Positions 1 to 60,763 of a DNA stretch of 64,000 nt are shown here, piece by piece. The stretch is taken from the sequence record MN648445, one strand, 5' to 3'. Source of the DNA: Escherichia phage FP43. The first letter of the stretch is position 1. Each line of letters begins with the position of its first letter. A model generated the notes under the pieces. That model was not told where the DNA came from. It searched no databases and worked only from the letters and a program-made list of their open reading frames with translations. A program made the position numbers and the translations under genes.

Positions 1-267
1 GCTTTGCTTGATTCAGACGAAACACTTGAATATCCATGTACTGACTCAGTGACTTATTATATTCGTGATGGTAAGCTTTATACCCACTGCCATATGCGTT
101 CTCAGAACTGTGCTGTTGTTATGCAGTTGGATTTTTATCTCCAAGGAAAATTACTTCATTATATCGCTAACGAATGTGGTGTAGAAGTTGGTGATTATAC
201 TCATACCATGGTAAGTGCCCATGTGTTTGAACGTGATTTTGATTATGTTAAAGGATTCCTTGACTAA
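1..267 (+). CDS. 42: dCMP hydroxymethylase, C-terminal fragment (gene runs off the 5' edge of the window)
   Basis: Frame-1 ORF open from base 1; thymidylate-synthase-fold C-terminal motifs (CHMRSQN..., IANECG, SAHVF) paralogous to the td gene in this window; lies upstream of uvsX as in T4. Confidence 0.6.
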   Translation, partial: ALLDSDETLEYPCTDSVTYYIRDGKLYTHCHMRSQNCAVVMQLDFYLQGKLLHYIANECGVEVGDYTHTMVSAHVFERDFDYVKGFLD

Positions 268-1166
268 TGGCTATTTTCCGCGTACCAATCTTAAGTATGC
301 GGTCTTATGAAACTGGACAGTATGCTATCCTTAAGGATGGCAACTTCCAACTTCATTTGCACCGTGCTAATCCAGGTGATGTGATTACATATCCACGTAA
401 TGCATCTGATATTAAAGAATGTGAACGTCTTTTCCCGGAATTTAAGTTTGTTCCATTATGGTATAAAGATAACGCGTATAACACTCGTAAATATTTCTGG
501 TCTGAAAATGAATTTGTGGTTGATTCATTAATTGCTTATTATGATTGTGATTTTCTAATAACAGATATCACTGGATATGACGGCGCTTTTGATGTAGAAT
601 TCAATTTCAATATCACGGCAGACCCTAATAAACCACGTTTTTATATTGACGAATTCTTAAAAACCGATATGTTGTCAGTTAATCGTTCACTTCAAACTAC
701 TGTGTTGAATGAACGTCAAAAAGAAGTGCTGGTTAACGCCGGTGCAGATGTTAATAAGATTATCGTAACGCAGAAAGTTATACGTCCTTCCATCATGCAG
801 CGTCTTGTAGGTGATTTGGCTCCTATTCATCTAGATGGTATTTTTCATCCATTTCGAATTAGTGACCCATGTTATCGTTTTGAACAAGTGGTTGAATGTG
901 CAATTCAATTAGGACAACCGCTTTATATAACCGATCCAAATAATAGCTTTGACAGAAATAAGTATCCTGAAGAAGCGCTGATTCGAATTTTTAAACCAAC
1001 TAAAACTGAGTACTATCAAATTCTTAAAGGACGTCCGAAAATTCAATATTTCGAAAATCCTGAAGAAGTATTCCATCCAGGTCTTGGTGAGTTCATCTAC
1101 TTTAATGCTTTAATTTCTTCACCGTATAATATACCTAAATACGAAGATGTCGTAATCGAGGAATAA
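267..1166 (+). CDS. hypothetical protein at the beta-gt position; possible GT-B glycosyltransferase
   Basis: ATG overlaps upstream stop (TAATG); C-terminal stretch RFEQVVECAIQLGQPLYITD resembles the GT-B donor-binding E-x-x-x-E-x-A-x-x-x-G-x-P motif; no resemblance to T4 beta-gt that I can see. Confidence 0.45.
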   Translation: MAIFRVPILSMRSYETGQYAILKDGNFQLHLHRANPGDVITYPRNASDIKECERLFPEFKFVPLWYKDNAYNTRKYFWSENEFVVDSLIAYYDCDFLITDITGYDGAFDVEFNFNITADPNKPRFYIDEFLKTDMLSVNRSLQTTVLNERQKEVLVNAGADVNKIIVTQKVIRPSIMQRLVGDLAPIHLDGIFHPFRISDPCYRFEQVVECAIQLGQPLYITDPNNSFDRNKYPEEALIRIFKPTKTEYYQILKGRPKIQYFENPEEVFHPGLGEFIYFNALISSPYNIPKYEDVVIEE

Positions 1167-1167
1167 A

Positions 1168-1716
1168 ATGGCTAAAATTATTTTAGTAGACGGCCCGGAT
1201 AATGCCGGTAAAACAACTTTCATTAATGACATAATGGAAATTAGTGAAAGATATGTGAAGATTGATTTCCCTAAACGAACAGTTGATGGACGTTTCGATG
1301 TTAAGTCTCGAAATGAAGTTGGCTGTTTCGAAACGATGTTGAATTATTTAGACCCTACTAAGATTTATCTGTTAGACCGTGGATATATTAGTAACTGGGT
1401 TTATGGACGTATTCGACAAGATGCGGACTCGGTTCTTGACGTTTATGAACAGGACTATGTTCGTCTTTGCCAAAACCATGATGTGTTCACAATTATTTTA
1501 ACACGTAACGAAATGACTGAAAGTTTTGAAGACGACCTTATTACTTTGTCTTCATTCGGTTTTAATACAGTCATTTCACATTTTGAAGAGTTTGCAATTC
1601 ATAACAAAATCCAAACGTATCAATTACTTAATCATGATGGTGCTAACAAAGTTATAGGATTTAATGCAAGCGAACGTAATGGTTTGATTACAGAAATCAT
1701 CAAATGGGCTCGTTAA
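1168..1716 (+). CDS. P-loop nucleotide/nucleoside kinase-like protein (Tmk/dNK-like)
   Basis: Walker A GPDNAGKTT at residues 9-17; LLDRGYISNWVYG about 55 aa downstream resembles the DRY/S motif of thymidylate kinases. Confidence 0.55.
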   Translation: MAKIILVDGPDNAGKTTFINDIMEISERYVKIDFPKRTVDGRFDVKSRNEVGCFETMLNYLDPTKIYLLDRGYISNWVYGRIRQDADSVLDVYEQDYVRLCQNHDVFTIILTRNEMTESFEDDLITLSSFGFNTVISHFEEFAIHNKIQTYQLLNHDGANKVIGFNASERNGLITEIIKWAR

Positions 1717-1815
1717 GAGCCTATTTAAAGTTTTAAATGCTGTATAACCCTTAGTATATAATCGTTTTATCTTTTAAACATGAGTAAAATATAATGATGC
1801 CTATGGAAAAATACA

Positions 1816-2988
1816 ATGTCTGATTTAAAATCTCGTCTGATTAAAGCTTCTACTTCTAAAATGACTGCAGACTTGACTAAGTCTAAGCTGTTTAATAATC
1901 GTGATGAAGTCCCTACTCGTATTCCGATGTTGAATATCGCACTAGGTGGTGCTCTGAATGCAGGATTGCAATCAGGCTTGACTATTTTTGCTGCACCTTC
2001 TAAACACTTTAAAACGCTGTTTGGACTGACTATGGATGCAGCGTATATGAAGAAATATAAAGATGCAATCTGTTTGTTTTATGACTCGGAATTTGGTGCT
2101 TCAGAATCTTATTTTCGTTCAATGGGTGTTGATTTAGACCGTGTAGTTCATACACCAATTCAGTCCGTCGAACAACTTAAAGTTGATATGACTAATCAGC
2201 TTGACGCTATTGAACGTGGTGATAAAGTTATTATCTTTATCGATTCAATCGGTAATACTGCATCTAAGAAAGAAACCGAAGATGCATTGAACGAGAAAGT
2301 CGTAGGTGATATGTCCCGTGCTAAGGCACTTAAATCTCTGTTCCGTATTGTGACCCCTTATCTGACTATTAAAGATATTCCGTGTGTTGCAATCAACCAT
2401 ACAGCAATGGAAATCGGCGGACTATATCCTAAAGAGATTATGGGTGGTGGTACAGGTATTCTTTACTCTGCTAACACTGTATTCTTTATCTCTAAACGTC
2501 AGGTTAAAGAAGGTACAGAATTGACCGGTTATGACTTCACGTTGAAAGCAGAAAAATCTCGTACAGTTAAAGAGAAATCTACTTTCCCAATCACGGTTAA
2601 TTTTGATGGCGGTATCGACCCATTCAGTGGCTTGTTAGAAATGGCAACTGAAATTGGATTTGTTGTTAAGCCTAAAGCCGGTTGGTATGCTCGTGAATTC
2701 CTTGACGAAGAAACAGGTGAAATGATTCGTGAAGAGAAATCGTGGCGTGCTAAAGCTACTGATTGTGTAGAATTCTGGGGACCGTTGTTTAAACACAAAC
2801 CTTTCCGAGATGCAATTGAAACTAAATATAAACTAGGTGCTATCTCTTCTATTAAAGAAGTTGATGACGCTGTTAACGACCTTATTAATTGCAAAGCAAC
2901 AACTAAAGTTCCTGTTAAAGCTTCTGATGCTCCGTCTGCAGCAGATATAGAAAACGACCTTGACGAAATGGAAGATTTCGATGAATAA
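1816..2988 (+). CDS. uvsX: UvsX recombinase (RecA-like strand-exchange protein)
   Basis: 390 aa; RecA-fold core and N-terminus MSDLKSRLIKASTSKMTA as recalled for T4 UvsX; acidic C-terminal tail. Confidence 0.93.
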   Translation: MSDLKSRLIKASTSKMTADLTKSKLFNNRDEVPTRIPMLNIALGGALNAGLQSGLTIFAAPSKHFKTLFGLTMDAAYMKKYKDAICLFYDSEFGASESYFRSMGVDLDRVVHTPIQSVEQLKVDMTNQLDAIERGDKVIIFIDSIGNTASKKETEDALNEKVVGDMSRAKALKSLFRIVTPYLTIKDIPCVAINHTAMEIGGLYPKEIMGGGTGILYSANTVFFISKRQVKEGTELTGYDFTLKAEKSRTVKEKSTFPITVNFDGGIDPFSGLLEMATEIGFVVKPKAGWYAREFLDEETGEMIREEKSWRAKATDCVEFWGPLFKHKPFRDAIETKYKLGAISSIKEVDDAVNDLINCKATTKVPVKASDAPSAADIENDLDEMEDFDE

Positions 2989-3322
2989 TCTCGATGATTT
3001 AAATCTAGAAATCGTTGATGAATCCCCTTCTTCGGAAGGGGAAGACATTCGCAAAGAACGAGTGTTTAATGAATCTCTTAAAATTATCCGTTCAGCAATG
3101 GAAAATGTCATTCAAGAGATTCTGATTACACTTGAAGACGGTTCCCATCATATAGTCTATATTACAAAACTAGACTGGGTTGATGGTAAAATCGTAATGG
3201 ACTTTGCAGTTCTTGACCAGGACAGAAAAGCAGAACTTGCACCACATGTTGAAAAATGTGTTACAATGCAAGTACAACAAGCTTTTAATGAACGAACCAA
3301 GAAAAAATTTAAATTCTTTTAA
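2981..3322 (+). CDS. 40: gp40 head vertex assembly protein (probable)
   Basis: ORF between uvsX and gene 41 as in T4; start ambiguous (ATG 2960 or 2981, both overlapping uvsX 3' end). Confidence 0.55.
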   Translation: MNNLDDLNLEIVDESPSSEGEDIRKERVFNESLKIIRSAMENVIQEILITLEDGSHHIVYITKLDWVDGKIVMDFAVLDQDRKAELAPHVEKCVTMQVQQAFNERTKKKFKFF

Positions 3323-3331
3323 GGAGTTATC

Positions 3332-4774
3332 GTGGTAGAAATTATTTTGTCTCATCTCGTATACGACCAGGCTTATTTTTCTAAGGTCTGGCCTTATATG
3401 GATTCTGAGTATTTTGAGCGTGGACCGGCAAAAAATGTCTTTAAAATTATAAAGAGCCACGTTAACGAATATAATGCAATGCCATCTATCAATGCATTAA
3501 AGGTGGCTTTAGATAACAGTTCTTTAACTGAAGCCGAATATAAAGGAACTTCAGACCTAATTGAAAAATTGGCTGATACTCCTGAAGACCACGAATGGTT
3601 GGTTAAAGAAACTGAGAAATATGTCCAGCAAAAAGCGATGTATAATGCTACATCCAAAATCATTGAGATTCAGTCTAATGCTGAACTACCTCCAGAACAA
3701 CGTAACAAGAAAATGCCTGACGTAGGAGCTATTCCTGATATTATGCGTCAAGCACTTTCAATTTCGTTTGATAGTTATGTTGGTCATGACTGGATGGAAG
3801 ACTATGAAGCACGCTGGCTTTCTTATCTAAATAAAGCACGTAAGGTCCCGTTCAAATTAAACATTCTTAATAAAATCACCAAAGGTGGCGCAGAAACAGG
3901 TACACTGAACGTTTTAATGGCCGGTGTTAACGTTGGTAAATCTTTAGGCCTTTGTTCACTTGCTGCAGATTATCTTCAAACAGGACATAATGTTCTTTAT
4001 ATTTCCATGGAAATGGCTGAAGAAGTTTGTGCTAAGCGTATAGATGCAAACATGCTTGACGTATCACTCGATGATATCGATGATGGTAACGTATCTTATG
4101 CTGAATATAAAGCCAAGATGGAAAAATGGCGTTCAAAATCAACATTAGGACGTTTAGTAGTTAAACAGTATCCTACTGGTGGAGCTAACGCTAATACATT
4201 TCGTGCATTGCTTAATGAGTTAAAACTTAAGAAGAACTTTGTGCCATCTGTAATCATGGTTGATTACTTAGGTATTTGTGGGTCTTGTCGTATCAGAGTT
4301 TACACTGAAAATAGCTACACATTAGTTAAAGCTATCGCAGAAGAACTTCGTGCATTAGCAGTAGAATCTGAAACAGTTCTATGGACTGCAGCCCAAGTAG
4401 GACGTGCAGCATGGGATGCTTCAGACATGAACATGAGTGATATCGCAGAATCAGCAGGTTTACCAGCAACGGCAGATTTCATGTTGGCTGTAATTGAAAC
4501 CGAAGAACTTGCACAAGCTGAACAACAACTTATCAAACAAATCAAATCACGATATGGTGATAAGAATAAGTGGAATAAATTCCTGATGGGTGTACGTAAA
4601 GGTAACCAGAAATGGATTGAGATTGAGCAAGAAGGCATGAACACACCTAACACAGTAAATGAAAACGCAGGTGCTCAGATGCGTCAGGCAGAGGTGAATC
4701 GTACGGAACGCGTAGGTAAAGCCAAAGCAACACGTGCTGACCTAGATAGCTTAGCCAATGAGTTAAAATTTTAA
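3332..4774 (+). CDS. 41: gp41 replicative DNA helicase (DnaB family)
   Basis: GTG start 6 nt after AAGGAG; Walker A GVNVGKS; sequence nearly identical to T4 gp41 as I recall it; 480 aa. Confidence 0.95.
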   Translation: MVEIILSHLVYDQAYFSKVWPYMDSEYFERGPAKNVFKIIKSHVNEYNAMPSINALKVALDNSSLTEAEYKGTSDLIEKLADTPEDHEWLVKETEKYVQQKAMYNATSKIIEIQSNAELPPEQRNKKMPDVGAIPDIMRQALSISFDSYVGHDWMEDYEARWLSYLNKARKVPFKLNILNKITKGGAETGTLNVLMAGVNVGKSLGLCSLAADYLQTGHNVLYISMEMAEEVCAKRIDANMLDVSLDDIDDGNVSYAEYKAKMEKWRSKSTLGRLVVKQYPTGGANANTFRALLNELKLKKNFVPSVIMVDYLGICGSCRIRVYTENSYTLVKAIAEELRALAVESETVLWTAAQVGRAAWDASDMNMSDIAESAGLPATADFMLAVIETEELAQAEQQLIKQIKSRYGDKNKWNKFLMGVRKGNQKWIEIEQEGMNTPNTVNENAGAQMRQAEVNRTERVGKAKATRADLDSLANELKF

Positions 4775-9496: not shown

Positions 9497-9584
9497 AATA
9501 TCTCCTTAGTTACCTATTATTTATTACGCTTTATAAAATTAATGTTAGAATTAACTCTCTTATACTGAATTGAAAGGAAAAATA

Positions 9585-10106
9585 ATGGCACACTTTAACG
9601 AATGTTCACAACTTATTTCTGGTGTTGATAAAGCAGAAGAAGCTTATTTTAATGCTCTGATTCACGAAGATAAAGACCCACTGCAGGTAATGCTTGATAT
9701 GCAGAAATCTTTACAGGTTCGTCTGGCAAATGACAAGCCTGAACATAACAAACATCCTGATGAATTGGCTACTGCTGGTGATGTTGTTGATTGGCTGCGT
9801 AATCAGAAAGATTATATTGATGATGAATTCCGTGAACTGCTGACTTCACTTGGTGGTATGAGCAATGGTGAAAAAGCCGCTAGCAGTGTATGGAAGCCAT
9901 GGAAAGCACAACATGCTGAATATCGAAATCGTCGTATCGATGAACTGTCTCCTGAAGACCAGCTTGAAATTAAATTTGAAATGATTGATATTCTGCATTT
10001 CGTTCTGAACATGTTCCAAGGTCTTGGTCTTTCTGCTGAAGAAATCTTTAAACTTTACTACTTGAAAAACCAACACAACTTTGAACGTCAGGATAATGGT
10101 TACTAA
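9585..10106 (+). CDS. 56: gp56 dCTPase/dUTPase (MazG-like NTP pyrophosphatase)
   Basis: MAHFNEC N-terminus, EE-x-x-E MazG-like acidic motifs; ATG 9585 preferred over in-frame 9570. Confidence 0.8.
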   Translation: MAHFNECSQLISGVDKAEEAYFNALIHEDKDPLQVMLDMQKSLQVRLANDKPEHNKHPDELATAGDVVDWLRNQKDYIDDEFRELLTSLGGMSNGEKAASSVWKPWKAQHAEYRNRRIDELSPEDQLEIKFEMIDILHFVLNMFQGLGLSAEEIFKLYYLKNQHNFERQDNGY

Positions 10107-16433: not shown

Positions 16434-16463
16434 GTTTACAACCAAGGATGGTTGGAGTATAAT
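16434..16463 (+). promoter_or_regulatory. early-type promoter cassette with 5-bp stem (CAACC/GGTTG)
   Basis: GTTTACAACCAAGGATGGTTGGAGTATAAT; same cassette as at 16990 and 63887 with compensatory stem changes. Confidence 0.6.
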
Positions 16464-16493
16464 CTTTCTATCTTAACCAAACAGGAAAACATT

Positions 16494-16988
16494 ATGAATA
16501 TCAATACCACGGCTACTTACATCCTGAAAGATGAAAAACAAATCAACTGGTACGGTGCTTCAGTGCGAGCTTATGAAAAGTTTTGTGAAATTTTAGGTGC
16601 CACTCAAGGTAATAGTTTCACTATTGTTAACTTCATCAAACAAGTTGAAGGCCCTTGGTTATTCTTAGAAATTAAAAATTCATATGGTACAATTTCTACT
16701 ACCGCCCTTCCAAGCACCGACTTTGAACTGTTGATTGAAGAAGTAGAACCCGTTAAAGATATCTGTATTGATATGGATATCGCTTGTATGTACGGTACTC
16801 TGATTAAGCCTATTGAGCCTACTGATTTGTTGTGTAAATATGTTTCAATTCGACGTCCGTTCGCAGGTCCAGTAAATGGATGGGTAACTGACCAATGGAT
16901 TGAAGACGGTGTTGAACTTCTGAACGTTGTTCATGCAGGTGATTTTAGTGTAGTTCCACGTAGTGCTGTGGTTAATATCCTTAATTAA
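16494..16988 (+). CDS. hypothetical protein, member 1 of a tandem paralog triplet
   Basis: C-terminal W(V/I)EDG-x-(K/E)L-x-N(I/V)V-x-(A/L)G-x-F-x-VVP motif shared with the next two ORFs; ATG 16494 preferred over TTG 16452. Confidence 0.6.
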   Translation: MNINTTATYILKDEKQINWYGASVRAYEKFCEILGATQGNSFTIVNFIKQVEGPWLFLEIKNSYGTISTTALPSTDFELLIEEVEPVKDICIDMDIACMYGTLIKPIEPTDLLCKYVSIRRPFAGPVNGWVTDQWIEDGVELLNVVHAGDFSVVPRSAVVNILN

Positions 16989-16989
16989 T

Positions 16990-17020
16990 GTTGTACATCC
17001 AAGGACGGATGGAGTATAAT
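16990..17020 (+). promoter_or_regulatory. early-type promoter cassette with 5-bp stem (CATCC/GGATG)
   Basis: GTTGTACATCCAAGGACGGATGGAGTATAAT. Confidence 0.6.
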
Positions 17021-17050
17021 GAATTCAATTTAAACAAAGAGAGAGAAATT

Positions 17051-17506
17051 ATGATTACTATTGGTGAAATTAAGCGTGTATCGTCTGCATCTCGTTCTAA
17101 AGCTGCAGGTCGTCTAGTTGAAGTGGTAGGACTTCGTACTAATGGTACTGGACGTGTTAAAGAAGTTAAAGTTCGAATCATTCCTAGTTCTGGAAAAACT
17201 GAAACTCAGTACGCTTACGTAAGTCCTAAATTCTTGGAAACTCATGTGAGCGCTCATTTTGCTTCTACTGAACCTAATGTACAGTTCAAATGGGCCCTTT
17301 GCAAAGGCGTTGAATTCCGGACTGATAAAGAATTTGATTTCATCGACGAATATGGTTATCCAAACAAAACTGATATTATGTGCGGCTTCATCAGTGACCA
17401 ATGGGTTGAAGATGGTGAAAAGTTATACAATATCGTATTCTTAGGTGACTTCCGAGTTGTTAAAGAATCTGAAATCACTCGCTATGTGTCTCCTCGTAAA
17501 GCTTAA
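17051..17506 (+). CDS. hypothetical protein, paralog 2 of triplet
   Basis: N-terminal SASRSKAAGRLVEV and C-terminal DQWVEDGEKLYNIVFLGDFRVV shared with paralog 3. Confidence 0.65.
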   Translation: MITIGEIKRVSSASRSKAAGRLVEVVGLRTNGTGRVKEVKVRIIPSSGKTETQYAYVSPKFLETHVSAHFASTEPNVQFKWALCKGVEFRTDKEFDFIDEYGYPNKTDIMCGFISDQWVEDGEKLYNIVFLGDFRVVKESEITRYVSPRKA

Positions 17507-21747: not shown

Positions 21748-22848
21748 ATGAAAGTTATGTTTATCCCATCTCGCGCAGTCCCATTTAACCCAGAACGTGT
21801 ACAAGGTGGTCTTGAAGCAGTACATTTAAATGTATTGAAATATCTTGTGTCCATCGGTGCTGATATTGATTATATCGGCTTTGATAATGACACGTTTGGT
21901 GACTGGAAGGTTAATCATCATCCTGTTGGTCATCTGACTAAATTCAGTCTAGGTATGAGTTATACTATGGCTCGTAAGATTGTTGAACTAGCCGGCATCC
22001 ATGAATACGATTTTGTTGTTACTATGGAACCGACCAAACTAACCGTTCAGGCAATTAAAGACGCAGGTCTCTCTAAAGTTCATAAGAATTTTATGGCAAC
22101 ACCATTTGAACCGGTATCTCGTGGCATTGTTCAAATTTGGGACCAGACTATTCAAATTCATAAGAACGGTGGTAAGAGTTATGCTCCTACTAAAGCCTTC
22201 CGTGAATTTGAACGCAAATATTGTTATATGACTTCAGGTCTGACTGACAAAATTGATTATGATTATTGGCGAGCAAATCCGTTGTTTGAAGCCGAAGATT
22301 ATCCGGTTATTTGTTTGAATGAGAAACCTGAAGTTCTTCCGGCGACTGATCTGATTATTAGTGCACAACGTTATGACACTAAAATGCGTCGTACTGATGT
22401 TGCTCTTGAAGCGATTAAAGCACTAGGCGAAAATGGTGCAGGATACTGTCCTAGTAAATGGGCACCACCAGCTAAATATCCTGTTATTATTGATGCTCCA
22501 CACAGTGAAATCATGGAACGTCTTAAAACAGCTAAAGCACTTATCAATACGTGTCCTGACACGGGTACGGTAGAGAATAGTTCTATTGAAGCCATCTCTA
22601 AAGGTGTCCCTGTGATTCAGTTAGTTTTTAAGGATTATCCGCACGCGACATTCGAATATGACCCAGATACTGTGCGTGTAGAAATTGATTCCTCTACTCC
22701 TAAGAAAGAAGTAGTTGCGCTTTACACAAAAGCTGTATTAGAATTCACTGACACATACGAAGCTCGAGTTAAACGTGCTGAAGCAGTATGGAAGAAGTAT
22801 AACCGAGATGCAGTTGTTGCGATGTGGGATAAAATCTTCACAGCGTAA
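21748..22848 (+). CDS. putative GT-B fold glycosyltransferase
   Basis: 366 aa; C-terminal TGTVENSSIEAISKGVPVIQ matches the GT-B donor-binding E-x7-E / EA-x-x-x-G-x-PVI motif; lies between 39 and rIIA, not at a T4 glucosyltransferase locus. Confidence 0.5.
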   Translation: MKVMFIPSRAVPFNPERVQGGLEAVHLNVLKYLVSIGADIDYIGFDNDTFGDWKVNHHPVGHLTKFSLGMSYTMARKIVELAGIHEYDFVVTMEPTKLTVQAIKDAGLSKVHKNFMATPFEPVSRGIVQIWDQTIQIHKNGGKSYAPTKAFREFERKYCYMTSGLTDKIDYDYWRANPLFEAEDYPVICLNEKPEVLPATDLIISAQRYDTKMRRTDVALEAIKALGENGAGYCPSKWAPPAKYPVIIDAPHSEIMERLKTAKALINTCPDTGTVENSSIEAISKGVPVIQLVFKDYPHATFEYDPDTVRVEIDSSTPKKEVVALYTKAVLEFTDTYEARVKRAEAVWKKYNRDAVVAMWDKIFTA

Positions 22849-23153: not shown

Positions 23154-25367
23154 ATGATTATTGAAACGGCTAAAGAAACGATTATTGGTTCAGGCGGTAA
23201 GAGCACAGCATTTACTATTCAAGGCAATAGCAAAGTTTATAAGATTTTGTCTAATGACCTTTATACAAACAAAGAATTGGCTTGTGTACGTGAATTAATC
23301 ACAAACTGTATCGATGGACAAATTCTTAATGGTTGCACTGATAAGTTTATTGTTCAGGCTCCAGGTCGTTTAGACCCACGTTTTGTAGTTCGAGACTTTG
23401 GTCCTGGTATGAGTGATTTCACCATTCGAGGTAATGACGAAGAGCCAGGAATCTATAACTCATATTTTGCTTCAACTAAAACATCGAGTAACGATTTCAT
23501 TGGTGGATTCGGACTCGGCTCTAAAGCTCCACTAGCATATACCGACACATTTAACCTTACGTCTTATCACAACGGCGAAGTTCGTGGTTATGTAATTTAT
23601 CAAGATGACACAGGTCCACAGATTAAGCCGACCTTTGTAGATAAGATGGGTCCTGATGACCGTACGGGTGTAGAAGTAGTTGTACCGGTTAACCCGGAAG
23701 ATTTTGAAAAGTTTGCATCCGAAATTGCATATGTTATGCGTCCTCTAGGTGACATTGCAGAAGTTCGTGGTGTTAAAGATATCAAATACTTTCCTGAATT
23801 TGATGATGTATATTTGGCCAAGGAAGCTCCATGGGGTGAACGCGGTAATATCATGGCTGTTTATGGCGGTATTGTATATCCAATCGGAAGTGTTATTAAA
23901 GAACAAACGTGGATGATGACGCGATGCACTACAGCTTATATTAAATTCCCTATGGGTGAACTAGATGTAGCTCCGTCTCGTGAAGCATTGTCATTTGATA
24001 AACGTACAGTAGCAAATATCCATAAACGCGTTGCAGAAATCGATGCTAAATTGTTCGCTGAAGATTCTAAGAAATGGATTGATTGTAAATACCCACGTCA
24101 TGTGTTCCGTGAAATTGATTCTCTTGGCTATACCGCTCGTAAATACATGGAAAAGGCCGGGTCTAATATTGAATCACTGAAATACTCTAAAGAACAACTA
24201 ACTTATTCTGAGTTGTACAAACGTTTTAAAATGGGGCCTGAGTGGTGTAATCTTGGTGTCGTATACGATATCGTTGAATCCCCTCGTCTTCGTCGTATTC
24301 GTGAAAGCGGCAGCTCAACGGCAACCATTTCAATTAACAGTCTGATTGGCATTAACATTAAAAATGTTGAAATTGTTATTGACGACGTTAAGGGACGCGT
24401 TCCATTAATGCGAGCTCTTAATTCAATTGAAATGTCTAAAGACGAGGTTAAATTAACCGGTAAAGTTCCACGCGGTTTTGGTAAAAGCGTACTATTCGTT
24501 GACCCTACAGACGAAGATGCAATGAAACTTCTGGAACGCCTTAAAGTTATCTTTGATGGCGACAACATTAACATGTACAAGACTTCAGAGCTTTTACAAA
24601 TCGTTAAGCCATGGATTGAAGTCAGGAAACGGACTAATGAGCCTCGTCCTAAATCGCCAAGTGCTCATCGATTCTTTAAGAATGAAAACGATGTTTGGGT
24701 ATCAGAAGACCTCTTTATTCCGGCAAGTGAAGCAGATGAAATCCAAGGTTATGCTATAGTTCGTAATCGTTCTAATGCTGAATGTCTTGACGCAGATAAA
24801 GGTTGGTTGAACTATGACTCCAATTTCTTAACCCGTATTGCTGATTTGTCAGGTATTAAAGAGTTCACTGTAGTTCGTCCACAGATTGCTAAGAAAGTTC
24901 GTAAACTTGGTGAAGTAGAATGCTTGTTCGAAAAATCAATTAATGACTATATTACGCTAATCGATAAAGTGGATTATGATGAGTATGTATCACCAAGTCG
25001 TAGAGCACAGCCTTATTTGAATCATATTACTCGTAATGAAGAGCTTAACTTCCTTAGTAAGTATTTTAGCTCTAAGAACAAAGAAATCAGTAAAGACTTT
25101 GCAAAACTCTCAACAGTAAATAATCGTTGGGGATGGAATCGATTCGCAGGTGCTACTAATACAGACCTGAATAAGAAGTTAGAACTGTGTGCTAAAATTT
25201 TCGATAAGCTTAAAGATAATGCTTACGATAATGATGATAAAATGGTTATTGAATTCGAAACCAATTATCATATTGTGTCAGACTACATGGGACGACGTGG
25301 TACTCTTTCTAAAGAACAAGTCGCTCAAATCGTTAAATTCATGAAGGCTGTGGAAGCAGCCAAATAA
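23154..25367 (+). CDS. rIIA: rIIA protein
   Basis: 737 aa; N-terminal GHKL-type ATPase-like motifs; followed by rIIB. Confidence 0.85.
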   Translation: MIIETAKETIIGSGGKSTAFTIQGNSKVYKILSNDLYTNKELACVRELITNCIDGQILNGCTDKFIVQAPGRLDPRFVVRDFGPGMSDFTIRGNDEEPGIYNSYFASTKTSSNDFIGGFGLGSKAPLAYTDTFNLTSYHNGEVRGYVIYQDDTGPQIKPTFVDKMGPDDRTGVEVVVPVNPEDFEKFASEIAYVMRPLGDIAEVRGVKDIKYFPEFDDVYLAKEAPWGERGNIMAVYGGIVYPIGSVIKEQTWMMTRCTTAYIKFPMGELDVAPSREALSFDKRTVANIHKRVAEIDAKLFAEDSKKWIDCKYPRHVFREIDSLGYTARKYMEKAGSNIESLKYSKEQLTYSELYKRFKMGPEWCNLGVVYDIVESPRLRRIRESGSSTATISINSLIGINIKNVEIVIDDVKGRVPLMRALNSIEMSKDEVKLTGKVPRGFGKSVLFVDPTDEDAMKLLERLKVIFDGDNINMYKTSELLQIVKPWIEVRKRTNEPRPKSPSAHRFFKNENDVWVSEDLFIPASEADEIQGYAIVRNRSNAECLDADKGWLNYDSNFLTRIADLSGIKEFTVVRPQIAKKVRKLGEVECLFEKSINDYITLIDKVDYDEYVSPSRRAQPYLNHITRNEELNFLSKYFSSKNKEISKDFAKLSTVNNRWGWNRFAGATNTDLNKKLELCAKIFDKLKDNAYDNDDKMVIEFETNYHIVSDYMGRRGTLSKEQVAQIVKFMKAVEAAK

Positions 25368-48016: not shown

Positions 48017-49792
<1,776 letters not shown>

Positions 49793-55302: not shown

Positions 55303-55803
55303 ATGAATATGCAATTGATTACTAATGATATGGTCGTAACCGCTTTTGGAGACACAACTGACGGAATCCGAGTCTTTAAGAAAGGACGTCCAGTTGGTTA
55401 TCTTACTGACCTACGTGTTACACTGGCCAAAAATCTTAAAAAGAAAGTAAAACAAAAAGAGTATTCCACCCGATACGCTGAAGAGAAACGTGAAGCAATG
55501 CCGGAAGCAGTTAATGCCATGGTAGAATTTCTTCAAAACAATTTGACTAAATATGACGCTAATGTTTTCGTTAATATTAGTCAACCAAACGTACATATCG
55601 CAGGTATAAAATTCTACATTATTTGCGACCCTCTTACCGACAAATTCAACCGCCTCGGAATTTCAAGTCCATATCATACAGCAGAAGAGTTGTGTGTATT
55701 GTTTGAATCGTACAAAATCCAGTGTGATGGTTTGAAAACCGTTCTTATCAATGGATTATCCCGAGATGAAATCATTGAGATTATTAAAACATGCTTAAAG
55801 TAA
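55303..55803 (+). CDS. alc: Alc-position protein (host transcription shutoff)
   Basis: 166 aa; placed by synteny between rnlA and the pseT.x genes. Confidence 0.55.
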   Translation: MNMQLITNDMVVTAFGDTTDGIRVFKKGRPVGYLTDLRVTLAKNLKKKVKQKEYSTRYAEEKREAMPEAVNAMVEFLQNNLTKYDANVFVNISQPNVHIAGIKFYIICDPLTDKFNRLGISSPYHTAEELCVLFESYKIQCDGLKTVLINGLSRDEIIEIIKTCLK

Positions 55804-59189: not shown

Positions 59190-60182
59190 ATGTTACCTGT
59201 CATCAGAAAACTTATTTCTCCAAAAGAACTGGCTGAGATTATTCCTTTGTCGGAAGCTTACGCATCACAAGTGGCTTCTCATCGCGAACAAGTTAATTCG
59301 ATTATGAACGGTGAAGACCCACGCAAACTTATTGTTGTAGGTCCTTGTTCAATTCATGACCCTATTGCTGCTGTTGAATACGGCAAACGTCTGGCTGAAC
59401 TTCAAACTCGTCTTCCTAATGTTCTGTTAGTGATGCGCGTTTATTTTGAAAAGCCTCGAACTACCGTAGGTTGGAAAGGTCTTGTAAATGATCCATATCT
59501 TGACGGAAGTTTTGATATGAACCACGGTCTTATAGTTGCACGAACATTGTGTCGTAAACTTCTACGTATGGGACTTCCATTAGCAACTGAAGTATTAGAC
59601 CCATTCACGATTAAGTATCTTTCTGGTATTTTCTCATGGGTTGCTATTGGCGCCCGTACGACTGAAAGTCAGACACATCGTGAAATTGCTTCGGGTCTAC
59701 CGATGTGCGTAGGCTTCAAGAACGCAACCAATGGTTCTATTAAAGTAGCTACAGACGCGATGTATAGTGCCGCCTGGCCTCATCGGTATATGGGTATGGA
59801 CGTCGATGGTACTGTAGGCATTGTTGAAGCTGAAGGTAATCAGAATACGCATATCGTATTGCGTGGCGGGACCAACGGCCCGAACTATCATTCTTCTGAT
59901 ATTCAAGAAGCTTCTAACAAAGCAAGGGCAGTAGGTCTGAATCATTATGTAATGGTTGACTGTAGCCATGCAAACGCTGATGGGCATTATAGCAATCAAA
60001 TTGGTATTGGTAAAAATTTAGCAGCTAATGATTTGGTCAAAGGAATTATGATAGAATCATTCCTACATGAAGGAAATCAAAAAATTTCCGATAATATGTC
60101 CTATGGCGTTTCCGTTACCGATGCGTGCATCAGTTGGGAACAAACTAAAGAGCTGTTAACTTATATTAATAAGGTTCAATAA
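59190..60182 (+). CDS. 3-deoxy-D-arabino-heptulosonate 7-phosphate (DAHP) synthase, AroG-type
   Basis: 330 aa; GPCSIHD, VMRVYFEKPRTTVGWKGL, IGARTTESQTHRE, GFKNATNGSIKVA, VLRGG and the C-terminal HEGNQ/ACISWE region align block-by-block with E. coli AroG as I recall it. Confidence 0.85.
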   Translation: MLPVIRKLISPKELAEIIPLSEAYASQVASHREQVNSIMNGEDPRKLIVVGPCSIHDPIAAVEYGKRLAELQTRLPNVLLVMRVYFEKPRTTVGWKGLVNDPYLDGSFDMNHGLIVARTLCRKLLRMGLPLATEVLDPFTIKYLSGIFSWVAIGARTTESQTHREIASGLPMCVGFKNATNGSIKVATDAMYSAAWPHRYMGMDVDGTVGIVEAEGNQNTHIVLRGGTNGPNYHSSDIQEASNKARAVGLNHYVMVDCSHANADGHYSNQIGIGKNLAANDLVKGIMIESFLHEGNQKISDNMSYGVSVTDACISWEQTKELLTYINKVQ

Positions 60183-60763
60183 TGAAAGCTAGCACATACC
60201 TTCAGATTGCATATCTGATTTCTCAAGAATCAAAATGTTGTTCATGGAAAGTTGGCGCAGTCATTGAAAAAGATGGGCGCATTATTTCTACTGGGTATAA
60301 CGGTTCACCTGCAGGTGGCGTTAACTGTTGCGAACATGCATCTGAAAATGGTTGGTTGAAGAATAAACCAATCCCAGTCATCGTTGCTGGGCATAAAGAA
60401 GGCACTACAGCATTTGGACGGGCCGATAATTTTGTTTTGGCTAAAGAACATCGGGCTGCTCATAGTGCATGGTCTGCCAATAACGAAATCCATGCGGAAC
60501 TGAATGCAATTTTGTTTGCAGCTCGTAAAGGTAATTCTATTGAAGGTGCTACGTTGTATACGACACTTTCTCCATGTCCTGATTGCACTAAAGCTATTAC
60601 ACAGTCAGGTATTAAAAAGGTTGTATATGCAGAATTATATGACCGATCTCCTGAAAATTGGGCAGACATTCTTAAACAAGCTGGTATTGAAGTAATTCAG
60701 TACTCTCGTAATAATCTTCGTTCTCTGAATTGGGAACAAATCCGAAACTTTTGTGGTGAATAA
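60182..60763 (+). CDS. cd: dCMP deaminase
   Basis: 193 aa; zinc-binding HAELNA ... SPCPDC motifs. Confidence 0.9.
   Translation: MKASTYLQIAYLISQESKCCSWKVGAVIEKDGRIISTGYNGSPAGGVNCCEHASENGWLKNKPIPVIVAGHKEGTTAFGRADNFVLAKEHRAAHSAWSANNEIHAELNAILFAARKGNSIEGATLYTTLSPCPDCTKAITQSGIKKVVYAELYDRSPENWADILKQAGIEVIQYSRNNLRSLNWEQIRNFCGE

Follow-up and report, generated by a model that had tools for sequence, protein, structure and literature searches.

Escherichia phage FP43 (sequence record MN648445) was analysed over a stretch of 64,000 nucleotides, here called the window. Positions 1-1716 hold the end of a ThyA-family gene and open reading frames (ORFs) of 299 and 182 amino acids (aa), all on the + strand, and uvsX follows at 1816-2988. 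The first-pass annotation, made from the letters alone, had marked these four elements, including the GPDNAGKTT and DRG motifs of the 182-aa protein, and each was recovered at the same position. The features of the triad are as follows.

1-267, + strand: 3' end of the ThyA-family gene (88 codons at 1-264 and a stop codon at 265-267; Pfam PF00303, E 6.6e-11), orthologous to RB69 gp48, a 5-hydroxy-deoxycytidylate (5-hydroxy-dCMP, 5hodCMP) synthase with PDB entries 9iqc/9ir2 from phage HY126.
267-1166, + strand: 299-aa compact GT-B glycosyltransferase, putatively the first (base-proximal) arabinofuranosyltransferase; orthologue of RB69 gp46:47, DLP3 gp79 and Thanatos TH1_063.
1168-1716, + strand: 182-aa P-loop kinase of the thymidylate kinase (Tmk) fold; orthologue of RB69 gp45 ('nucleotide kinase').

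The first two genes share one base (TAATG at 265-269), the second and third are one base apart (1166/1168), and GAGG lies upstream of the kinase start; therefore, the triad makes up one translationally coupled unit. Within positions 1-3400, promoter-like sites were not above chance (11 versus 12.9 expected from shuffles), and there were 0 terminator-like sites. On the T4 map, the slot between gene 43 and uvsX holds beta-gt/segA; here it holds the GT-B protein and the Tmk-like kinase instead. The 299-aa protein showed no sequence similarity to T4 beta-glucosyltransferase (beta-gt; E 3.7). Thus, the proposed replacement of the beta-gt interval was borne out, and the protein did not prove to be a canonical beta-gt orthologue.

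A megablast search with positions 1-3000 returned 152 phage records at 95-99% identity over the full length, all from RB69-like Mosigvirus; the best DNA matches included OLB35, ATK47, p000v and the LF82 series. UvsX of the window is only 67% identical to T4 UvsX, so the backbone is RB69-like and not, as first described, near-identical to that of T4. We are virtually certain that the triad is the RB69-type arabinosyl-5-hydroxycytosine module of Mosigvirus. The DNA should thus be decorated otherwise than by T4 glucosylation, as the first-pass annotation had anticipated.

The ThyA-family fragment is identical to residues 151-238 of RB69 gp48 (88/88). In an alignment of this fragment with T4 gp42 and E. 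coli ThyA, it reads HMRSQN...QLD, versus YQRSCD...PFN in E. coli and NMRSND...RND in T4. At E. coli ThyA position 169, with the numbering checked by the invariants C146, R166 and S167, the window has Asn (D169N) and T4 gp42 has Asp. The equivalents of the catalytic Cys146, of L143E and of the dCMP-selecting N177D are all present ('LEYPC', 'QLD'); these checks cover the C-terminal 88 residues of the synthase, the part inside the window. Lee et al. (PMC13326640) proposed D169N as the diagnostic residue of 5hodCMP synthases. RB69 gp48 is about 22% identical to E. coli ThyA, is clearly set apart from T4 gp42 in the alignment, and matches the HY126 PDB entries 9iqc (540 bits), 9ir2 and 9iqu. Experiments identified it as a flavin-dependent 5-hydroxy-dCMP synthase that converts dCMP to 5hodCMP, with 18O2 incorporated and flavin bound (PMC13326640). 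The window homologue is predicted to make 5hodCMP from dCMP and O2, a reaction demonstrated with RB69 gp48, its 100% identical counterpart over the fragment. Orthology to T4 gp42, the dCMP hydroxymethylase, was considered and rejected on the basis of Asn rather than Asp at position 169 and the absence of close similarity to gp42. Because of Asn169, the 'gp42-like' gene is not a dCMP hydroxymethylase, and the gp48 identity and D169N indicate 5-hydroxycytosine (5hoC) as the base instead of the hydroxymethylcytosine (hmC) first assumed. Public records do not annotate the triad consistently: the synthase goes under dCMP hydroxymethylase in some and thymidylate synthase in others, while the kinase is named thymidylate kinase.

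Thomas et al. 2018 (PMC6024577) reported arabinose in RB69 DNA, called the base arabinosyl-hmC, and proposed ORF003c as the transferase. With LC-MS (liquid chromatography-mass spectrometry) and nuclear magnetic resonance, Lee et al. (Nucleic Acids Research 2026, PMC13326640; preprint June 2025) identified RB69 cytosines as mono- and di-arabinosylated 5hoC, with the sugar joined by an ether oxygen directly on C5. A gene cluster with exactly these three genes was described there in 2025-2026, and a third arabinose is added on DNA by DLP3 gp76 and gp77 (PMC13326640). A paper on the Durham collection found the same chemistry in another Mosigvirus and called the earlier hydroxymethyl assignment erroneous. 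Two further works cited by Lee et al. (PMC13326640) are that of He et al. (Nat Chem Biol 2026) on the Afh genes of HY126 and that of Mahler et al. (Cell Host Microbe 2025) on Aat transferases. The bifunctional kinase/uridylyltransferase AfhE (RB69 gp52:53) is reported to make uridine diphosphate (UDP)-arabinose in HY126. The UDP-arabinose genes (AfhE/AfhF homologues) are encoded just upstream of the window start. The module is thus already known, having been published together with its chemistry and distribution between 2018 and 2026, and structures are solved for two of its proteins. The first-pass annotation had named it the best candidate for an undescribed module, which does not agree with the reports of RB69 arabinosylation in 2018 (PMC6024577) and of the gene cluster in 2025-2026 (PMC13326640).

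The 299-aa protein belongs to phrog_3891 ('unknown function'; E 7.9e-156), and Pfam and NCBIfam scans matched no family. It is 99% identical to RB69 ORF047c plus ORF046c, with full-length orthology, 46% identical to Acinetobacter phage orthologues, and 47.5% identical to Thanatos TH1_063. In a DNA alignment, the GenBank record of RB69 carried an additional T following window position 810 (GTAGTGTGA vs GTAGGTGA), at about 24947-24949 of NC_004928; the ORF is intact in the window and in hundreds of other Mosigvirus records. The extra T therefore splits the gene into ORF047c and ORF046c, and Lee et al. (PMC13326640) also regard RB69 genes 46 and 47 as a single ORF broken by a sequencing error. 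A structure model built from a 53-sequence alignment (predicted local distance difference test 95.2; predicted template modelling score 0.90) has a compact two-Rossmann GT-B fold and resembles retaining GT4 enzymes. There was no sequence similarity to a second, 366-aa glycosyltransferase of the window (E 3.5). A profile search of PDB sequences with the family alignment gave no match, and no entry corresponds to the 299-aa protein. The family is acidic, with a median isoelectric point (pI) of 5.15, compared with 9.05 for T4 beta-gt and 6.11 for T4 alpha-glucosyltransferase (alpha-gt). Net charge and pI as a sign of a DNA or a nucleotide acceptor were dropped, because T4 alpha-gt acts on DNA yet has a pI of 6.11. 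The gene is annotated as 'RNA polymerase binding protein' in LC53, Rgz1, CAU_ECP01 and IME341.

By tblastn, 348 phage records carry the 299-aa glycosyltransferase and 343 carry the kinase, their genus counts being nearly equal; only 211 carry the 366-aa glycosyltransferase, from Mosigvirus and Acinetobacter phages (two copies each). The modification has one arabinose in Serratia phage LC53 and two in Bas46. LC53 and Thanatos have both the 299-aa glycosyltransferase and a kinase homologue, and are not among the carriers of the 366-aa enzyme. This phyletic pattern is consistent with a core, base-proximal role for the 299-aa transferase and with chain extension by the 366-aa family; Lee et al. 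(PMC13326640) argued for the same order from synteny. On the strength of its fold, its synteny and its phyletic distribution, the 299-aa protein is probably the first arabinosyltransferase, moving arabinofuranose (Araf) from UDP-Araf to the 5-OH of 5hoC.

An IMG/VR scan with the glycosyltransferase alignment gave 58 loci, which were then scanned with hidden Markov models (HMMs) for the glycosyltransferase, the kinase and the ThyA homologue. The glycosyltransferase was present at an identity of at least 33% in 46 loci, and a kinase homologue lay no more than 4 kb away in 44 of them; the two loci without a kinase both end at a contig edge. The kinase was directly downstream of the glycosyltransferase in 33 of the 44 cases, directly upstream of the ThyA homologue in six Dhakavirus-type loci, and further upstream in five. 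A ThyA homologue with MRS[QEN]N was directly upstream of the glycosyltransferase in 44/46 loci, the other two being cut on that side. The triad was also found on contigs of 356 kb and 122 kb, where the kinases are only 27-29% identical and keep the P-loop, FPK, DR, SN-VY, TR, F-DD and FN positions. Remote glycosyltransferase homologues (24-27%) had weak kinase-like neighbours or none. Co-inheritance with the synthase and the first glycosyltransferase in 44/44 loci, down to about 27% identity, shows the kinase to be a core part of the pathway, one for which the literature searched names no function.

Three of the contigs gave further observations. The 356-kb JGI contig Ga0597909_000001, of jumbo-phage size, apparently carries the whole pathway in one block (L005, 2110-7682): a 522-aa APH-domain protein resembling the bifunctional sugar kinase/uridylyltransferase, an ORF of 207 aa, a ThyA homologue of 346 aa that reads MRSNN and is extended at length at its N terminus, a 200-aa ORF, a 381-aa glycosyltransferase homologue and a 185-aa kinase homologue, with a dCMP deaminase nearby. 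On the 122-kb metagenome contig Ga0643544_0000138, the D169N ThyA homologue has a Flavodoxin_2 gene (PF02525, NAD(P)H-dependent FMN reductase-like; L006, 4739-5293) directly upstream, which Mosigvirus lacks at this place. The product of the Flavodoxin_2 gene would fit a flavin-reducing partner of the flavin-dependent dCMP hydroxylase. On the 230-kb IMG/VR contig 3300028591_000080, a remote glycosyltransferase homologue adjoins a ThyA-family gene that keeps Asp169 ('QRSGD'; L063, 3010-4909), and the base served by this transferase could be of a hydroxymethyl or methyl type instead of 5hoC.

The kinase has its Walker A motif GPDNAGKTT at residues 9-17 (nucleotides 1192-1218) and DRG at residues 70-72 (nucleotides 1375-1383). 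It is 180/182 identical to RB69 gp45 and belongs to phrog_761 'thymidylate kinase' (E 5.7e-45). It has the Tmk fold, the P-loop with Asp (GxDxxGKS/T) and the D-R motif, and its best structural matches are thymidylate kinases. A profile search of PDB sequences with the kinase family alignment gave P-loop-level matches only, with no entry corresponding to the 182-aa protein, and no structural or sequence similarity to T4 gp1 (PDB 1dek) was found. In hhalign, only residues 3-40 aligned between the kinase family and human TMPK. In a tentative alignment made by eye, Leu58 lies opposite the thymine-contacting Arg of human TMPK, four residues past the stacking Phe.

We give even odds to 5hodCMP as the substrate of the kinase. 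This substrate is favoured because the kinase goes with the synthase even outside Straboviridae, because Dhakavirus-type loci couple it to the synthase and not to the glycosyltransferase, and because a ThyA homologue and its cognate nucleoside monophosphate (NMP) kinase are a common pair in phages with pre-replicative base replacement. A text search of the literature for a 5hodCMP kinase or Afh gene names found nothing. Two other roles were rejected. An arabinose kinase is not called for, that role being held by AfhE/gp52:53; the earlier suggestion that the kinase acts on a sugar precursor is thus unlikely, since the step is assigned to this bifunctional enzyme encoded upstream of the window. 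A DNA kinase for the base hydroxyl was also rejected: the 5-oxygen is kept in the ether link, so such chemistry, as carried out by the 5-hmdU DNA kinases (5-HMUDK) in thymidine hypermodification, is not required.

Taken as a whole, the best explanation, to which we assign a probability of roughly 0.7, is that the triad is the conserved core of the RB69-like arabinosyl-5-hydroxycytosine hypermodification pathway. The ThyA homologue would hydroxylate dCMP at C5 with flavin and O2 to give 5-hydroxy-dCMP, a step shown by others for an identical protein. The Tmk-fold kinase may then phosphorylate a modified deoxycytidylate (in the simplest case, 5hodCMP to 5hodCDP), in parallel with the T4-gp1-type deoxynucleoside monophosphate (dNMP) kinase encoded elsewhere, and 5hodCTP would go to the replisome. 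The 299-aa retaining-type GT-B enzyme would move the first arabinofuranose from UDP-Araf to the 5-OH of 5hoC in an alpha ether linkage, and the 366-aa glycosyltransferase (21748-22848) would add a second, beta-linked arabinose.

Several observations weigh against this explanation. Single DLP3 glycosyltransferases, including the orthologue gp79, were inactive on 5hoC-DNA with UDP-Araf or UDP-arabinopyranose, and Lee et al. cannot tell whether the first arabinose goes onto the mononucleotide or onto DNA (PMC13326640). The Thanatos orthologue TH1_063 was reported to make UDP-xylose in vitro (PMC12838424). RB69 gp159 (gp1-type) turns 5hodCMP into 5hodCDP in vitro (PMC13326640); therefore, it is not obvious that the Tmk-like kinase is needed. 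This kinase is below the Tmk cut-off (TIGR00041, 16.3 bits versus 83.25 required) and has no PF02223 match at E <= 1. An enzyme assay for the 299-aa glycosyltransferase or for the kinase was not found in the literature searched, which excludes He et al. 2026 and Mahler et al. 2025. A reciprocal IMG/VR scan from the kinase, whose other matches were mostly the same contigs as in the glycosyltransferase scan, also brought up Morganella phage vB_MmoM_MP1 (NC_031020). This phage has an intact kinase with all family-invariant residues between pol and uvsX (L076, 4995-5525; L083, 20500-21030), 53% identical to the window kinase. Unlike its relative Rgz1, MP1 has no ThyA homologue, glycosyltransferase or arabinose genes between pol and uvsX; in tblastx, the kinases of the two phages are about 59% identical and UvsX 91%. 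A megablast search with the Rgz1 ThyA and glycosyltransferase DNA gave no MP1 match while matching more distant phages; the whole MP1 genome was not searched at the protein level.

These observations bear on two other explanations of the kinase. It could be an ordinary thymidylate (dTMP) or broad dNMP kinase in a plastic region, without a specific modification role, which we consider unlikely. The thymidylate kinases among its best structural matches, its RefSeq name (thymidylate kinase) and the MP1 gene, which keeps all family-invariant residues without an adjoining ThyA homologue and glycosyltransferase, would agree with this. However, the kinase accompanies the D169N synthase and the glycosyltransferase in viruses very distant from one another, among them contigs outside Straboviridae, and chance placement does not account for this. 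It also falls far under the Tmk family thresholds. A gp1-type kinase, which handles dTMP in T4, is already present in these phages. Alternatively, the 299-aa glycosyltransferase might arabinosylate free 5hodCMP and the kinase convert ara-5hodCMP to ara-5hodCDP, which would then be polymerised, with later sugars added on DNA. The translational coupling of the two genes, their co-inheritance in 44/44 loci, a Tmk base-contact region that cannot be aligned to thymidylate kinases, and the need to explain a second NMP kinase beside the gp1-type enzyme all speak for this pre-replicative route, but the support is purely circumstantial. T4-type glycosylation is post-replicative, Dhakavirus-type loci couple the kinase to the ThyA homologue and not to the glycosyltransferase, and MP1 has the kinase without the glycosyltransferase. 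Global charge does not discriminate (family pI 5.15, against 6.11 for T4 alpha-gt, a DNA enzyme). In the work of Lee et al. (PMC13326640), the DLP3 orthologue was negative on a DNA substrate and the level of the first arabinosylation was left unsettled, two further points in favour of the route; against it, 5hodC was readily incorporated once gp48 and gp159 were expressed. We regard the pre-replicative route as quite improbable. If true, this would be the first natural case of nucleotides glycosylated for DNA ahead of replication, and the phage polymerase would take a sugar-bearing dCTP analogue.

The TH1_063 report raises another identity for the 299-aa protein, namely a UDP-pentose pyrophosphorylase (sugar-1-phosphate uridylyltransferase) and not a DNA glycosyltransferase. 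Purified TH1_063, 47.5% identical to the window protein, gave UDP-xylose from uridine triphosphate and xylose-1-phosphate as judged by LC-MS (PMC12838424), but the assay was a single end-point with a non-cognate sugar and no mutant control. The fold is GT-B and not that of a nucleotidyltransferase. In addition, the cluster already has the bifunctional kinase/uridylyltransferase that is reported to make UDP-arabinose in HY126, and the phyletic pattern needs one core glycosyltransferase, for which the 299-aa family is the sole candidate in mono-arabinosyl phages. We therefore consider a pyrophosphorylase very unlikely. The explanation given by the first-pass annotation, an undescribed cassette decorating hmC in a T4-like phage, is hardly tenable: the genes do sit in the T4 beta-gt interval, with a dCTPase and a dCMP deaminase present, but the D169N signature, the identity with the characterised RB69 enzyme and the published cluster all contradict it. 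The pyrophosphorylase label of TH1_063 (Shewanella phage Thanatos; L004, 5995-6897; PMC12838424) conflicts with its GT-B fold family and with Lee et al., who assign it as the single arabinosyltransferase. The adjoining TH1_064, which PMC12838424 does not discuss, is homologous to the window kinase.

The arabinosyl-5-hydroxycytosine pathway can be compared with known systems. RB69 gp45-gp48, gp78-gp80 of Acinetobacter phage DLP3 and the Afh cluster of E. coli phage HY126 have the same genes in the same order as the window, with 99-100% protein identity to RB69, the same D169N synthase signature, and the same second glycosyltransferase (PDB 9iqz) elsewhere. RB69 differs in nothing of substance; the 299-aa ORF is intact in the window, and its GenBank counterpart is split by the one-base error. 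T4 gp42 with alpha- and beta-gt (glucosyl-hmC) follows the same logic: a ThyA-family enzyme makes a C5-oxygenated dCMP before replication, a dCTPase lowers the dCTP pool, GT-B enzymes transfer the sugar of a UDP-sugar, and the slot between gene 43 and uvsX is shared. The window kinase resembles vaccinia Tmk (2v54) and human TMPK in its fold, GxDxxGK(S/T)T with Asp, FP(K/E)R, and D-R after strand 3. In contrast to them, it is under all curated thresholds, has Gly as the third residue of DRY, cannot be aligned in the thymine-O4 contact region, and always goes together with an enzyme that modifies cytidylate. Rhizobium phage RL38J1 gp214-216 (hexosyl-5-hydroxycytosine, Pootjesviridae) form the same triad of kinase, glycosyltransferase and D169N synthase, as described by Lee et al. 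(PMC13326640); its sugars are galactose and glucose, the sequence similarity is remote only, and such remote loci give weak or no kinase HMM matches.

Other genes of the window that touch on this pathway or on transcription are as follows.

21748-22848, + strand: second glycosyltransferase, 366 aa, orthologue of RB69 gp3/ORF003c, between topoisomerase gene 39 and rIIA.
9570-10106, + strand: dCTPase-like NTP pyrophosphohydrolase (dCMP supply, dCTP removal; phrog_173, E 1.8e-45; PF08761).
60182-60763, + strand: dCMP deaminase (pyrimidine pool remodelling; PF00383, E 1.5e-26).
48932-49792: td.
55303-55803: Alc homologue (PF17527, E 1.1e-42).
16452-17506: two adjoining MotB-family ORFs (PF17613; 178 aa, E 1.6e-8, and 172 aa, E 2.9e-38).

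The 366-aa glycosyltransferase scored 829 bits to PDB 9iqz/9ir0 ('phage HY126 glycosyltransferase') and is 99.5% identical to RB69ORF003c. The dCTPase-like gene and the dCMP deaminase lie inside the window, as had been noted before. T4 Alc halts transcription on DNA that contains cytosine and leaves hmC DNA alone; it is not obvious how Alc would discriminate where the phage DNA bears arabinosyl-5-hydroxycytosine rather than hmC. The MotB-family pair is apparently a tandem duplication of a T4 motB-like gene.

To the published work, this analysis adds a check of D169N in the window itself and structure models that were obtained independently and match those already published. It further adds phyletic grounds for how the transferases are ordered, and a tally that makes the kinase a near-obligatory partner of the synthase and the first glycosyltransferase. 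The remaining questions are narrow, and the co-inheritance of the kinase raises a concrete and inexpensive biochemical one. For annotation, a 'gp42-like' gene together with a dCTPase and a dCMP deaminase does not imply hydroxymethylcytosine; Asn169 flags 5-hydroxycytosine.

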